Both the position numbers and the translations under genes were made by a program. This document shows positions 5,400 through 14,335 of a DNA stretch of 64,000 nt, in pieces; within the stretch, counting starts at the first letter, position 1; each line of letters opens with the position of its first letter. This DNA comes from an uncultured virus (IMG/VR IMGVR_UViG_3300035698_026597). Taxonomy: Duplodnaviria > Heunggongvirae > Uroviricota > Caudoviricetes. Location: IMG/VR virus record IMGVR_UViG_3300035698_026597; one strand, written 5' to 3'. The notes below the pieces were generated by a model, which saw only the letters and a program-made list of their open reading frames with translations, ran no database searches and was not told the origin of the DNA.

Positions 5400-5780
5400 A
5401 TGCGATACATCAGAAAGCATATCATAATCTCAACTGTAGCTGATATGGAGCTAGATGATGATAAAAGTATACGAGATCTTTTGGGAAGGATCTCAAGCGG
5501 AAGCGTAGATCTAAAAATAGAGTACAGGGACGTTAGGAGTTTAACGCTAAGGGATTACGAGCGTTGTAGGATCATATCTGTTGGAGATAGTACAATAAAT
5601 CTCAGGATTTTTAGAGCAGGTGCTCAGTTTGTAGTTAATAATATACCCTTCGAGAATATAATATCTATTACGATGTCTAGCAAGCAGAGAAACATAGTAC
5701 CAGATAAAAAGACTATGACTAGATTCGACCTAATTGATATACCAGAAAATGCCGAAGAGGTAGTTGATGAAAAAGTTTGA
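5400..5780 (+). CDS. Hypothetical protein
   Basis: 126-aa ORF coupled to neighbours; RFDLIDIPE near C-terminus. Confidence 0.6.
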   Translation: MRYIRKHIIISTVADMELDDDKSIRDLLGRISSGSVDLKIEYRDVRSLTLRDYERCRIISVGDSTINLRIFRAGAQFVVNNIPFENIISITMSSKQRNIVPDKKTMTRFDLIDIPENAEEVVDEKV

Positions 5781-7152
5781 CAACTCATCATTTGCACATT
5801 GTCATGTTCATAGTGAGTACAGTTCTTTCGACGGCTTGGCCCCTATCGGGAAGCTTGTTTTGCGCGCGAGAGAAATGGGTTTCCCAGCGATAGCTCTTAC
5901 AGATCATGGGACAATGGGCGGATGTATTAAATTTGTAAATGAGTGCAGAAAGAAAACGGATAAGAAGGGTAACGAGATCCCGTTTAATACGATCAAGCCT
6001 CTTATCGGGTCAGAGTTCTATATGTGTCCTGACCATACAGCAAGGAGCAAGCTAGAACAGCCAAGGGGAAGAAAGTCAAATCACCATCTAGTGCTGATAG
6101 CCAAAAACTACAAGGGATATAGGAACCTATCTGCGTTGTCTCATCTTTCATACACAGAAGGTTTCTATATGGACCCCAGGATAGACATGGCTCAGCTAGC
6201 AGAGCATTCTGAAGGACTTATCTGTTCAACTGCATGCTTGGCTGGAGTTGTTAACTCGAATTTGATGTACAATAAGTATGATAAAGCTAAGAAGCTTTGT
6301 AGCATATTTAAAGACATTTTCGGTGAAGACTTCTTTTTGGAGGTCATGTATCACGGGATTCGTCTTGAGATGGAGATTATACCAGACATATTCAAACTGA
6401 GTCGCGAACTGGATATTCCAGTAATCTGTACAAACGATTCTCATTACATATATAAGAATCAGTCAAACAGTCATGAAGTTTTTATGTGCATGTCAACCAA
6501 TAAGTGCCTGAAAAGCGAGAACAGGCTGAAGTTCCCATTTCAAGAGTTTTATCTCAAGAGCGCACAAGAGATGGCTGTTATGTTTGGGAGTGTTCCGCAA
6601 TGTTTAACGAATACGATGGCGATTGTGGAGAGGGTGGATGAGGCTGACATTAATCGTCAACTCTTCGGCGGTATGAGACTTCCTAAGTTCGATGTACCGG
6701 AGGGAGAAAGCCCAATCAGCTACATGGAGAGATTGGCGTGGCAGGGGGCGAAGAAACTTGGATGGCATAAAAGCCAACCACATATCGACGCTTTGAAAAG
6801 AGAGCTTGAGGATATCAAGGTAGCATGGGCAAGTAATGGATATGATTTCGCTACCTATTTTTTAATAGTGCAGGACATTATTCGTTTCGCGAATGAAAGT
6901 GATATTCTACCAGGACCAGGTAGAGGATCTGGGTATGGAAGCCTTTTGCTTAGATGCCTTGGAGTAACTTACGGTCCAGATCCAATTGAGTACGGTCTTC
7001 TTTGGGAAAGATTCCTAGGATTCGATTCTCGCCAGTTTATTCTCGAAGATGATTTTGGGTTTAAAAACATCAAAAACACAATATCTTCTTTGGATAGTGA
7101 TGATACTGATAGGGATTTAGAGGATGACCTGGGTGGTGTCGATAGGTATTAA
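5764..7152 (+). CDS. dnaE: DNA polymerase III alpha subunit, fragment 1 (PHP domain plus start of palm)
   Basis: HCHVHSEYS..DG, ALTDHG, HLVLIAKN..GY.NL, NDSHY, YLKS..EM, GPGRGSG.GSL, LLWERFL; stops before the PDxDxD motif. Confidence 0.95.
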   Translation: MMKKFDNSSFAHCHVHSEYSSFDGLAPIGKLVLRAREMGFPAIALTDHGTMGGCIKFVNECRKKTDKKGNEIPFNTIKPLIGSEFYMCPDHTARSKLEQPRGRKSNHHLVLIAKNYKGYRNLSALSHLSYTEGFYMDPRIDMAQLAEHSEGLICSTACLAGVVNSNLMYNKYDKAKKLCSIFKDIFGEDFFLEVMYHGIRLEMEIIPDIFKLSRELDIPVICTNDSHYIYKNQSNSHEVFMCMSTNKCLKSENRLKFPFQEFYLKSAQEMAVMFGSVPQCLTNTMAIVERVDEADINRQLFGGMRLPKFDVPEGESPISYMERLAWQGAKKLGWHKSQPHIDALKRELEDIKVAWASNGYDFATYFLIVQDIIRFANESDILPGPGRGSGYGSLLLRCLGVTYGPDPIEYGLLWERFLGFDSRQFILEDDFGFKNIKNTISSLDSDDTDRDLEDDLGGVDRY

Positions 7153-7215
7153 TTTTGCTTTTAGGGAGGAAACTTTCCCATACTTAGCCAAACTATATCA
7201 TATAGGAGGTTAGAT

Positions 7216-8106
7216 ATGAAAGTAAAATGTTCTAATTGTGAAAAAGTTTTGAGAAGATCGAAGCGTGATATTGAAAGAAATAAAACAGGTAAGTATTTTT
7301 GCGGTTATGATTGCCGCTCAAAATTCTATAGGGCTTCATATGCAGTTGAGTGTGTTATATGCGGGAAGGAATTTGATAAGAGTCCGGCAGACCAGGAAAG
7401 GTACCCGGTTCATTGCTGCTCAATAGAGTGTAGATCAGCAAACAATGATAAGCGACAAGATATAGAATGTGCTAATTGTAAAAAGAAAATGCGTCTTCCC
7501 CCTAGTAAAATTTCAGGCAGATCAAACGTTTTCTGTAGCAAAGAATGCGCTGACTCATTCCAAACAACTAAAAAGTGGATAACCTGTTCTTGGTGCGGAA
7601 AACCATTTCAGCAGCATCTTTGTATAATATCGAGATGTAAGCACAATAGCCCGTGTTGTTCCAGGGATTGTGCGGCAAAGCTTGTTTACAAGGAATCGTT
7701 CATAGAAAAAGAATTTGAGGATCTAATTAAGCCACTTGGTCTCAAGTATGAAAGGAACTGTCGTACTATTGTTTCACCAATGGAACTTGACTTCTGGCTA
7801 CCGGGCATAAAGTATGCAGTGGAAATCAACGGTATATGTCATTATGAACCTATCTATGGCGAATATGTCCTTGAGGCTCAAAAGGCACGAGATAGGTTAA
7901 AAAGAAGAAAATGTAAACAGCAGGGGATTAAACTTAGAGTGGTGAAGCCAGGCAACTGTTCTAAGGGGCAACACATAAAAAGGTTCAAGAGAGTTGTAAA
8001 CGAAATAAGGAAAAGGCACGCCATAATGTGTCTTGATAGGCTGGCACAAGGTTGGAATAATAGAATAATCGGTAAGAGCAAGAGGCAACAACTTAGGATG
8101 ACATAA
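7216..8106 (+). CDS. Free-standing homing-endonuclease-like protein: Cys-rich zinc-finger repeats plus Vsr/DUF559-like nuclease
   Basis: Repeated CxxC...FCSxxC units; C-terminal ELDFWLP...AVEINGICHY...D..K...C. Confidence 0.75.
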   Translation: MKVKCSNCEKVLRRSKRDIERNKTGKYFCGYDCRSKFYRASYAVECVICGKEFDKSPADQERYPVHCCSIECRSANNDKRQDIECANCKKKMRLPPSKISGRSNVFCSKECADSFQTTKKWITCSWCGKPFQQHLCIISRCKHNSPCCSRDCAAKLVYKESFIEKEFEDLIKPLGLKYERNCRTIVSPMELDFWLPGIKYAVEINGICHYEPIYGEYVLEAQKARDRLKRRKCKQQGIKLRVVKPGNCSKGQHIKRFKRVVNEIRKRHAIMCLDRLAQGWNNRIIGKSKRQQLRMT

Positions 8107-8129
8107 CAGCGGCGTGGACAGATACTAAA

Positions 8130-12977: not shown

Positions 12978-13630
12978 TGAAAAGTAGAAACAAAAATGCG
13001 AAGTTGGATTATGCATCTTTCGTCACTGCAATTATAGAGGCAGAAAACTCGGATGCAAAAGGAAAAAGTGCGGCAGGTCGGTCTGGCAAAATGTTTGAAC
13101 ATGTAGTTTGCGCTTTGAAACAATTGGGTTTCGAACGTTATACGAACAAAGAGTACGAGGAATTGTCTATTGAGAAAAGGCTGCCAAATCGCTACATAAT
13201 ATGTAACGTTCCATATTTTAGTTTGCTAAAAAAGAAGGCAGAAGAATATGGGATTAAGCGTAGAGCGGGGTCATGTCGAACTGAATTTGTTATTGTTGCC
13301 AATGACGCTATTTCGACTGAAGAATTTCCTACTAATGGTGAGCCATTGAAAATTAGAGTTGAGTGTAAATGGCAGGGAGGTCCAGGCACCACTCAGAAAA
13401 AATTAGCACATACAGTAATAGATTTACAATATGGTGGTTCTCTAGAAAATAACGCAATTTTGCTAATGGACGGAGCGGGGTTCGATGAAGCCATGCATTT
13501 ATTAATTAGCGAACTTTGTGAGGATGGTGTTTCTTGGAAACGTGCACCGGAAGTGGAACCTAAAAGAATTCGTAAAATGCGTCTGAATGATTTTGCGGAC
13601 TGGGCGACCGCCGCATTCGGTAATGGTTAA
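12977..13630 (+). CDS. PD-(D/E)XK nuclease, putative restriction endonuclease partner of the methylase
   Basis: G..FE helix, RTEFVI...RVECKWQ..PGT..KKL...LLMDG.GF; TAATG coupling to dam. Confidence 0.7.
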   Translation: MKSRNKNAKLDYASFVTAIIEAENSDAKGKSAAGRSGKMFEHVVCALKQLGFERYTNKEYEELSIEKRLPNRYIICNVPYFSLLKKKAEEYGIKRRAGSCRTEFVIVANDAISTEEFPTNGEPLKIRVECKWQGGPGTTQKKLAHTVIDLQYGGSLENNAILLMDGAGFDEAMHLLISELCEDGVSWKRAPEVEPKRIRKMRLNDFADWATAAFGNG

Positions 13631-13639
13631 TAATTAACT

Positions 13640-13771
13640 ATGATAAAGTGTAAAGTAAAATCAATTAAATCGTTAGGTACTAAAAAAACCTATAATTTAA
13701 TGATGGCTTCCGATCAGCACAACTATGCTATTACGGATCCTGAGAACGCGGGGTTTGTTATAAGCGCAAAT
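13640..13771 (+). mobile_element. Split intein C-half (IntC, 44 aa)
   Basis: MIKCKVKSIKSLGTKKTYNL....QHNY........GFVISAN|S: blocks F and G, basic, terminal Asn, +1 Ser. Confidence 0.92.
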
Positions 13772-14335
13772 TCCCATTCCTGTTGTTACGGCTACATATC
13801 TTTCGTTACAGCATACATAAAAGCTCACTATCCAGACGAGTTCTTCTGCGCATTACTTAACGTAGAGAACAGTAGAAAGAATCACGACAAGATCGAGGTT
13901 GTAGAGTCGGATGCCAAAAAGTTTGGGATCGTTCTTGCCGATAAGGATCTTAACAAGTGCAAAGTCGAGTACGTTATATCGTCAAAGAAGGATCTTGCGG
14001 CAGGCGTGACTTGCACAGTTATTACTCCTAGCTTGATGGTTAAAGGCATAGGATTGGATTCATCCAAGGAGCTTGGACGTAAGGCACCGTACAAGAGTCT
14101 GAGAGACATCTCATATCGAGCAGATACGAAGCTAGTAGATCTTGATGTAATAGGGTGTTTGGTAGACGCAGGTTTCTTTGATAAGCAGTTTAGAAAAGCG
14201 AAAAAGAAGAAGAGATCCCTAACTAAAGAAGCGTTTCGTGCTGGGCTTCTCAAGAAGTTCAAGCAAATGAGAGACGACCAGCGGAAAGCTTTCGGAAGAG
14301 GGGTTGATTCAGGCGATATATTTGGTGACGAATAG
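13640..14335 (+). CDS. dnaE: Split intein C-half fused to DNA polymerase III alpha fragment 3 (rest of fingers, HhH)
   Basis: 44-aa IntC ending ...FVISAN, then SHSCCYGYISFVTAYIKAHYPDEFFCALLN and VKGIG (HhH); no OB fold. Confidence 0.93.
   Translation: MIKCKVKSIKSLGTKKTYNLMMASDQHNYAITDPENAGFVISANSHSCCYGYISFVTAYIKAHYPDEFFCALLNVENSRKNHDKIEVVESDAKKFGIVLADKDLNKCKVEYVISSKKDLAAGVTCTVITPSLMVKGIGLDSSKELGRKAPYKSLRDISYRADTKLVDLDVIGCLVDAGFFDKQFRKAKKKKRSLTKEAFRAGLLKKFKQMRDDQRKAFGRGVDSGDIFGDE

Follow-up and report, generated by a model that had tools for sequence, protein, structure and literature searches.

This study concerns a stretch of 64,000 nucleotides (hereafter the window) from an uncultured virus of the Caudoviricetes (IMG/VR record IMGVR_UViG_3300035698_026597), in which a replicative DNA polymerase of the C family (DnaE type) was found to be encoded by three separate genes, designated F1, F2 and F3. 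F1 and F2 are separated by gap 1 at a break without an intein (break 1), and F2 and F3 by gap 2 at a break flanked by the two halves of a predicted split intein (break 2). The three genes and their parts are as follows.

5764-7152, + strand: F1, 462 amino acids (aa); PHP domain, N-terminal third of the palm (GRGS motif and helix to ERFL) and acidic tail
7063-7152, + strand: C-terminal tail of F1, 29 aa, acidic, ending LGGVDRY-stop
9114-10868, + strand: F2, 584 aa; N-extension, palm catalytic strand, thumb, fingers and N-intein
9114-9404, + strand: N-terminal extension of F2, 97 aa, a second copy, in degenerate form, of the palm segment at the end of F1
9405-10526, + strand: extein of F2; palm catalytic strand (PDVDMD, with the third Asp in KFDIL), thumb and fingers to ..YGFNL
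10527-10868, + strand: N-intein, 113 aa, following ..YGFNL; Cys1 is F2 residue 472, and block B reads T-A-D-H
13640-14335, + strand: F3, 231 aa; C-intein, rest of the fingers, HhH region and C-terminal motif
13640-13771, + strand: C-intein, 44 aa, ending ..VISAN, followed by Ser+1, which is S45 of F3 (base 13772)
13772-14335, + strand: extein of F3, 187 aa; rest of the fingers, HhH region and conserved C-terminal ..GVDSGDIF..

A preliminary description of this DNA had reported three separate and colinear DnaE genes, each with its own start, with four unrelated genes in the first gap and three in the second. The list of open reading frames (ORFs), the Pfam and phrog_405 matches and the map on P0018, an intact relative of 994 aa, confirmed this arrangement, in which the start codon of F1 is TTG 5764 or ATG 5767. 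F1 matched Pfam PHP (7.7e-47) and positions 2-98 of the 260 of DNA_pol3_alpha; F2 matched positions 95-260 of the same family, the finger domain (2.8e-50) and, weakly, an intein family; and F3 gave a weak match to HHH_6. Of the 1190 positions of phrog_405, F1 covered 37-435, F2 439-792 and F3 794-939, and residues 2-423, 426-812 and 814-994 of P0018 corresponded to F1, F2 and F3, respectively. F1 was aligned with residues 7-416 of Mycobacterium tuberculosis DnaE1 (7pu7) and F2 from residue 385 onward, and the F2 extein was aligned with residues 426-817 of Taq DnaE (3e0d). The F3 extein was 79% identical to its counterpart in L024, the closest relative (80-86% aa identity). The preliminary description had to be corrected in that F2 does not start at PDVDMD, which is preceded by the conserved 97-aa extension, and in that F1 carries the 29-aa acidic tail.

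The absence of frameshifts and internal stops, claimed earlier, was confirmed. So was the intactness of the catalytic motifs: two alignments, of 45 and of 43 DnaE sequences (the window and 44 and 42 others), were used to define invariant residues, all of which the window has. All nine invariant PHP residues, which we take to be metal ligands, are kept in F1 (H14, H16, D23, H48, E84, H108, C158, D225 and H227). The invariant palm motif R387-G388-S389 is located in F1, and the invariant catalytic residues D100, D102 and D274 are located in F2. The palm and finger features of the C family are thus complete but spread over two polypeptides. The OB fold and the tau-binding C-terminal part of bacterial DnaE are absent, the match stopping at position 939 of the 1190 of phrog_405 and at the end of P0018; relatives stop at the same point, as a shorter phage form of DnaE. 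The C-terminal ..GVDSGDIF.. of F3 presumably represents a candidate clamp-binding motif. A comparison with library DnaE sequences detected no further DnaE-like sequence in the 64-kb window besides the three pieces.

The second break had been taken for a split intein joining fragments 2 and 3, and hence for a break of a different kind from the first, intein-less one. Both statements were borne out by the intein motifs, by the coverage of the Hint domain and by the sequence of the restored junction. In hhalign comparisons with a 151-column mini-intein profile, built from three cis mini-inteins of relatives, the N-intein matched columns 1-112 (probability 99.7%, E 8.6e-27) and the C-intein columns 107-151 (99.0%, E 2.5e-18). 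Since the two together cover the 151 columns, they make up a complete Hint domain. The exteins joined as YGFNL/SHSCCYGYISF (the slash marks the junction) give the exact sequence of the intein-free L024, whose uninterrupted site reads ..YGFNLSHSCCYGYISF... When the N-intein was searched with phmmer, the best solved matches were the DnaE split inteins 7qil (1.3e-7), 4kl5, 2keq and 1zd7 (to 1e-4); the C-intein alone, a query too short for this purpose, matched nothing in the PDB. In public data, 11 stand-alone homologues of the C-intein with its extein (215-396 aa) were found, in which the C-intein was better conserved than the extein, and N44 was invariant in the 12 C-inteins. Judged by these features, break 2 is a canonical and complete split intein that is expected to splice. 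The C-intein of L005 was 66% identical to that of the window, as against 29-33% for the exteins, a contrast which fits horizontal spread of an intein-endonuclease unit.

At break 1, the F2 extension repeats the palm segment with which F1 ends. Features of a second copy are recognisable in it: the RLxYEL helix, GDEN in place of GRGS, the GS-helix, DP and ER. When 16 extensions were compared by hhalign with 116 canonical DnaE segments, they were aligned in register over 66 columns (probability 94.6%, E 6.5e-8), RLxYEL being paired with EELD, GPGRGSaAGSlVaYaLGIT with G.kN..NSwTAwaLGmT, and the DP and ER motifs likewise. The match to the canonical segment was also obtained for lineages ii (E 9.6e-8) and iii (E 8.1e-6) of the phage group described below, and for the linkers of four contiguous relatives (E 3.9e-6). 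A 35-aa hidden Markov model (HMM) of the stretch from GRGS to PDxDxD, built from 116 bacterial-type DnaEs, recognised 8 of 8 F2 segments of lineage iii, with scores reached by 0-9 of 1000 shuffles. With a 99-position HMM that extends 60 aa further upstream, the extensions were aligned in two colinear blocks; of the 14 extensions, 13 had scores that no more than 4 of 500 shuffles attained, L022 being the one that failed, and L008 scored 18.8 bits against a shuffle maximum of 6.6, these shuffle counts not being independent as the tested sequences are related to one another. In addition, the matches of F1 and F2 overlap on residues 362-387 of the bacterial-type P0044. GRGS is kept in F1 only, the F2 copies reading GDEN, GTKN, GHKN or TNNNG, and the catalytic aspartates follow the F2 copy only. 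Taken together, the profile matches show that a palm segment of ca. 70-90 aa has been duplicated and that break 1 is situated between its two copies, which have degenerated in a complementary manner.

The two breaks were then followed through 21 loci (the window and 20 others), which had been collected with C-intein and N-extension patterns, so that the following counts are biased; L026 and L028 were mapped by tblastn only. Break 1 is split in 15 loci (the window, L001, L003-L006, L008, L009, L011, L013, L018, L020, L022, L024 and L025) and contiguous in four (L002, L007, L015 and L016), and its state was not assignable in L010 and L012. F1 and F2 are adjacent or nearly so in all 15 split loci, and F1 of the window was 66% identical to that of L001. 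The intein site is split in 11 of the 21 (the window, L002, L005-L012 and L025), carries a cis intein in four (464 aa with an endonuclease domain in L001; 149-161 aa in L003, L004 and L013, that of L004 having 149) and lacks an intein in six (L015, L016, L018, L020, L022 and L024). In L005, L006, L008, L009, L011 and L025, too, break 1 occurs together with an intein that is split at this GFN site. At least three pieces were found in 10 of the 21 loci, and L006 has four. In the remote canonical DnaE loci L029-L045, the gene was contiguous in 17 of 17, with a link of 21-30 nucleotides from ERFL to PDxDxD. A quick maximum-likelihood tree resolved three phage lineages, with split forms scattered among contiguous ones and a minimum of three state changes among the phage rows. 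The split layout persists across lineages that share only 25-30% identity. The contiguous L002 and the intact P0018 are nested deep in the tree and look like products of secondary fusion.

Inteins were seen at several other places in these genes, and the DnaE gene appears to be an intein hot spot in the relatives. Further sites were noted at GRG/S (split in L006, cis in L009) and in the PHP domain (L003). An intein in the fingers, near extein residues 115-140, is split in L004, L018 and L020, and L018 has a third site. The insertion points of related inteins at the window's site lie two residues apart among the loci (GFNxSH/SCC in L003 and L013; GFNx/SHS in the window, L001, L002 and L004), and the stand-alone P0003-P0005 show the same two-residue shift. 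Outside DnaE, an ORF for a DNA methyltransferase of 659 aa in L001 (3744-5723) is seemingly interrupted by an intein-like insert with LAGLIDADG-type motifs, as read from the translation.

Gap 1 contains an endonuclease gene, a short relic and three cargo genes (g2-g4), which are listed below.

7216-8106, + strand: first gene of gap 1, 296 aa; putative free-standing homing endonuclease with zinc-ribbon repeats and a C-terminal nuclease domain
8096-8128, + strand: relic of an older F1 3' end, ..SGVDRY-stop in another frame, adjoining the g2 start
8130-8561, + strand: cargo gene g2; L024 homologue in the same place, 38% identity
8588-8947, + strand: cargo gene g3; L024 homologue in the same place, 70% identity
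8922-9113, + strand: cargo gene g4; L024 homologue in the same place, 33% identity

The endonuclease matched PHROG families 559, 3339, 9084 and 7140 ('HNH/homing/intron-encoded endonuclease') at 3e-15 to 1e-5, and gave no above-threshold match in Pfam, NCBIfam, PADLOC or the PDB. It has 28 homologues, on contigs up to 557 kb, and its nuclease class is taken from the PHROG names and from the label DUF559 of one distant member. Scans of Pfam, NCBIfam and PADLOC found no family for g2-g4. In L024, where the endonuclease is absent, F1 ends ..EDDMGGVDRY-stop and g2 begins two bases on. The relic at 8096-8128 of the window aligns with this junction between F1 end and g2 start, and differs by synonymous codon changes and a 2-base insertion. 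Because the SGVDRY relic lies downstream of the endonuclease gene, the endonuclease must have come in along with a new copy of the 3' end of F1. A tail ending like that of F1 was also found in L003, L004, L013, L018, L022, L024 and P0013; of the 10 loci of lineage iii that are split, 7 have the GGVDRY tail, and all contiguous forms lack it.

The contents of gap 1 differ among the relatives. Break 1 has a gap of 43 base pairs (bp) with two in-frame stops and no gap gene in L001, and a gap of 14 bp with no gap gene in L022, whose F2 has 659 aa; the map of L028 by tblastn gave ca. 490 bp between F1 and F2. One gene without an assigned function lies in the gap of L003, and four small genes lie in that of L004. 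A gene for a ClpP protease (Pfam CLP_protease, 5.6e-44) occupies 7555-8202 in the gap of L013. The preliminary description had likened the first break to a 'fractured gene with intervening endonuclease', which did not hold: L024, L001 and L022 are split without an endonuclease, and the break was therefore not made by the endonuclease now in the gap. Break 1 is ancient and older than its gap endonuclease, which is a late arrival.

Gap 2 contains three genes and a second relic.

10889-11998 (open from 10853), + strand: free-standing LAGLIDADG endonuclease with two motifs and N-terminal helix-turn-helix domains (PHROG 4645, 1.6e-39; Pfam LAGLIDADG_3)
11966-11991, + strand: relic of a C-intein start, ATGATAAAGTGC.., within the 3' end of the LAGLIDADG gene
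12021-12977, + strand: Dam-family N6-adenine DNA methyltransferase (TIGR00571, 274 bits at a cut-off of 114.85; Pfam MethyltransfD12, 9.6e-58)
12977-13630, + strand: PD-(D/E)XK nuclease (Pfam PDDEXK_11, 3.3e-9)

Homologues of the LAGLIDADG endonuclease (38-48% identity) lie between the intein halves in L002, L005, L006 and L007, and a truncated one in L025. The LAGLIDADG gene of L002 and of L007 extends at its 3' end over the ribosome site and the start of the C-intein gene. In the window, the segment 11966-11991 is repeated at 13636-13661 (85% identity), with the Dam and PD-(D/E)XK genes between the copies; the duplicated start of the C-intein thus marks the left edge of a later insertion of these two genes. 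The PD-(D/E)XK protein had only four homologues, none of them named, and gave no match in the PADLOC scan. The order Dam then nuclease was met in one plasmid, as a weak match (22.5% identity, E 5e-4), and the nuclease is possibly the partner of the methylase in a pair resembling a restriction-modification (R-M) system.

Three further observations concern gap 2. The idea that the LAGLIDADG gene is the freed endonuclease domain of the L001 cis intein was dropped, the best BLASTP E value being 0.23. A 63-bp tandem duplication (12009-12117) includes the ribosome site and the beginning of the Dam gene, giving two in-frame starts and the repeated peptide MLE[YN]DKLLKPK. In runs X1 and X2, identity with the window stops at 11204, in the LAGLIDADG gene, and starts at 12079, in the second Dam-start repeat, with other sequence attached; from these breakpoints, which rest on one contig per run, the LAGLIDADG and Dam genes would also occur in another context in the same habitat.

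The genes of the window run in one direction (+), and they also encode a primase, a helicase, a protein resembling single-stranded DNA-binding proteins, a UvsX-like recombinase, a Cas4-like exonuclease, a deoxynucleoside monophosphate kinase and a clamp loader. No other polymerase was found among the 69 further window ORFs scanned. A megablast search of the region against phage records gave no match, and no cultured phage is close; the relatives sit on viral contigs up to 488 kb, which points to a large uncultured phage. Low-depth contigs from four salt-lake metagenome runs, the best-matching of which is possibly the source sample itself, match the window letter for letter. They span the junctions 7152/7216, 8106/8130, 9113/9114, 10868 and 12977; among the contig pieces listed, no joint that skips any part was seen, and none bridges 11998/12021 or 13630/13640. 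There was no RNA sequencing run among the matching runs listed.

Selection on the pieces was evaluated against L024 from the proportions of non-synonymous (pN) and synonymous (pS) differences. The lowest pN, 0.09, belonged to the F2 extein; the F1 core and the F3 extein each gave 0.10 and the N-extension 0.14, and pS in the same four regions was 0.73-0.97; as synonymous sites are saturated, pN and pS are given instead of the ratio of substitution rates (dN/dS), except for the F2 extein (dN/dS 0.03). pN was also below pS in all three of g2, g3 and g4. The polymerase pieces are under purifying selection and are not decaying. No intact dnaE was found elsewhere in the 64-kb window, and no relaxed selection was visible.

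Some features of the window lie apart from the polymerase. A second DNA methyltransferase (phrog_67, 1.1e-59) is encoded at 1432-2310 and an HNH / endonuclease VII-like gene (phrog_374, 3.5e-32) at 29033-29767. A 156-aa ORF antisense to F3 (13882-14352, - strand) is probably a chance frame because all other genes are on the + strand. Many small ORFs of this phage group end with the C-terminal motif R-[FL]-[DE]-[IL]-[LM]-D-[LIM] (e.g. RFEILDL). It was seen at 3744-4559 and 5400-5780 of the window, at 2355-6623 of L004, and in L018, L020, L024 and L025; in the two window ORFs it lies in the last 25 residues, and it is absent from ORF bodies.

Based on these results, we regard it as probable that the three genes encode the working replicative polymerase of a large uncultured phage, assembled from three polypeptides by one trans-splicing event and one non-covalent association. 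This was also the proposal of the preliminary description and is the best reading of the locus, although the association itself is something we infer. The N-intein of F2 and the C-intein of F3 would associate and trans-splice to give a chain of 658 aa, a length close to the 659 aa and 664 aa encoded by the single F2 genes of the intein-free L022 and L024, respectively. F1 would then bind the F2-F3 chain non-covalently, supplying the PHP domain and the GRGS nucleotide-binding motif. Since GRGS is in F1 and the catalytic aspartates are in F2, the active site would be a composite one. The two-subunit enzyme would be the ancestral and normal state of this phage group, its subunits being held together by the duplicated segment, the N-extension and the GGVDRY tail, which are candidates for the interface. 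Mobile genes would have entered both gaps later, a DUF559-like endonuclease in gap 1, and a LAGLIDADG endonuclease and afterwards the Dam and PD-(D/E)XK cassette in gap 2, each entry leaving a short duplicated junction. The proposal builds on what was observed at the locus, namely how its genes are built, where the intein begins and ends, that a palm segment is duplicated, in which order the insertions came and that selection is purifying; splicing, F1 binding and polymerase activity are its predictions.

Several points weigh against this proposal. The binding of F1 to F2 is a prediction like the splicing and the polymerase activity, and the survey counts are biased by the way in which the loci were collected. 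BLASTP of F1 against F2 found no shared segment, hhalign of the clade's own 32-35-aa copies was not significant (P 0.18), and the N-extension profile found no DnaE among PDB sequences. The duplication is not needed for catalysis as such, L002 and P0018 being without the insert. No Shine-Dalgarno sequence was recognised for F3. The intein invasion may be younger than much of the divergence from L024, and another polymerase may lie outside the 64-kb window, which is part of a genome.

Four other explanations were weighed. The F2-F3 chain might fold a complete palm with its own degenerate copy and work independently of F1, which would then be a separate PHP exonuclease or accessory subunit. F2 does contain a colinear copy of the whole N-terminal part of the palm and may be structurally self-sufficient, and F1 keeps all nine invariant PHP residues; but GRGS is degenerate in every F2 copy seen and strictly kept in F1, F1 always retains the palm segment to ERFL, beyond the PHP domain, and the two genes stay adjacent or nearly so wherever they are split (15 of 15 loci). 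We thus consider two independent enzymes unlikely. That the pieces are remnants of a gene disrupted by mobile elements, with replication carried out by a host or phage polymerase encoded outside the window, is quite improbable: the window covers only part of the genome and mobile genes have entered the locus on at least three occasions, but the reading frames are uninterrupted, the catalytic residues are all kept, pN is far below pS in every piece, the split layout has outlasted divergence to 25-30% identity, and the 69 further ORFs include no other polymerase.

Break 1 adjoins the active site, where inteins do insert (the GRG/S site of L006 and L009), and the F1 tail and the F2 N-terminus could accordingly be imagined as the docking, non-splicing Hint halves of a dead split intein. 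Against the mini-intein profile, however, extensions, F1 tails and linkers reached probabilities of only 0.1-1.0% (P at least 0.055), whereas the true N- and C-inteins scored 99.7% and 99.0% in the same hhalign test. The N-extension matches the palm segment instead (E 6.5e-8), and F2 has no Pfam Hint or intein match outside residues 489-561. A dead intein at break 1 is therefore highly improbable. We give hardly any credence to joining at the RNA level by a group I or II intron, trans-splicing or translational bypass. Phage polymerase genes do host introns, and bypass is named as an alternative by Dassa et al. (2009, PMC2677866) in the part of that paper considered here. Against this, intron covariance models (Rfam, E up to 1) detected no group I or II intron in 5000-15000, where they gave two unrelated weak matches only. 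Several full ORFs lie in each gap, each piece has its own start, the N-terminus of F2 (MAD/MSD..) and the C-terminus of F1 are conserved, and break 2 is fully explained by the intein.

Trans-splicing of F2 and F3 with non-covalent binding of F1 thus remains the preferred explanation, and it leads to a wider proposal, which is possible but which we advance only tentatively. Many large uncultured phages may use a two-subunit C-family polymerase that arose by partial tandem duplication of ca. 70-90 aa of the palm and complementary degeneration of the copies, with a composite active site, the paired duplicates as interface, and the gaps as safe landing sites. If this is true, selfish and cargo genes (endonucleases, the R-M-like pair, ClpP) gather in both gaps of an essential gene, and repeated invasions yield three- and four-piece polymerase genes. 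The loci also indicate that a replicative polymerase can tolerate a break in its active-site domain over long evolution, in three lineages with 25-30% identity, and partial duplication as a route that makes a break viable would provide a testable model for the splitting of essential genes. As regards the origin of split inteins, the relatives offer a natural series that runs from no intein through a cis mini-intein and a cis intein with an endonuclease domain to the split stages, and among the latter from a free-standing LAGLIDADG gene to a decayed endonuclease and to extra cargo. They further add a family of DnaE-type split inteins with Ser+1, to which the Npu and Ssp tools are related.

Among known systems, the split DnaE inteins of cyanobacteria (Ssp and Npu; 4kl5, 2keq, 1zd7 and 7qil) are the closest solved relatives of the intein at break 2, with the same host protein and the same split position within the intein. 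The cyanobacterial C-intein has a non-His penultimate residue, similar to that of the window. The cyanobacterial intein is inserted ca. four residues upstream (..AEY/CFNKSH), with Cys at +1, compared with GFNL/SHS and Ser+1 in the window. The cyanobacterial DnaE halves are usually at separate loci, and the host enzyme is not known to have an intein-less break. For break 1 the counterpart is NrdA of Aeromonas phage Aeh1, for which Friedrich is said to have described the arrangement nrdA-a / mobE / nrdA-b in 2007. From the sections of Crona et al. (2011, PMC3045599) considered here, Aeh1 NrdA is likewise an essential enzyme split in its catalytic core without an intein, with an endonuclease gene in the gap, and its assembly depends on new tails, C-terminal and N-terminal, at the break; a new terminal tail absent from unbroken homologues is also present at break 1. 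The Aeh1 break was reportedly made by insertion of the endonuclease, whereas break 1 predates its endonuclease; moreover, unlike that of Aeh1, break 1 is common to three divergent lineages and has a duplicated part of the host gene itself on its two sides.

Two genes for one replicative polymerase, with products that associate as two chains or are trans-spliced, are known from the split gp43 B-family polymerases of T4-like phages (Petrov and Karam) and from the split-intein PolB of Nanoarchaeum equitans, both as cited in the part of PMC2677866 considered here. They belong to a different polymerase family and have one break of one kind each, and in that part the combination of both kinds in one gene is not reported for either. 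The nearest precedent for the whole locus is provided by the 'fractured genes' of Dassa, London, Stoddard, Schueler-Furman and Pietrokovski (2009, PMC2677866), which include three metagenomic DnaE loci. In the passages of that paper considered here, a split intein interrupts conserved replication enzymes, a free-standing endonuclease gene lies between its halves, most cases come from phage-like DNA, and the model also covers endonuclease invasion of intein-less genes. The window likewise has a free-standing endonuclease between its split-intein halves. The endonucleases of that study are of the GIY-YIG or Vsr-like kind, and LAGLIDADG is a word absent from the paper, whereas the endonuclease of the window is of the LAGLIDADG type; the intein sequences of DnaE-1, -2 and -3 in the supplement differ from that of the window; and a second, intein-less break, a duplicated palm segment and a methylase-nuclease cargo are not described in those passages. 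In the literature searched, to which subscription journals did not belong, there was no phage DnaE combining both breaks, no conserved intein-less DnaE split and no duplicated palm segment. The preliminary description had regarded the combination as uncharacterised, and in that no phage DnaE of this kind was found described it was right; as a singular case the window does not stand, since six other loci share both breaks. An intein break and an intein-less break are thus each known separately, their combination in a phage DnaE would be the new aspect, and the 'fractured genes' picture of 2009 is extended by it and not overturned.

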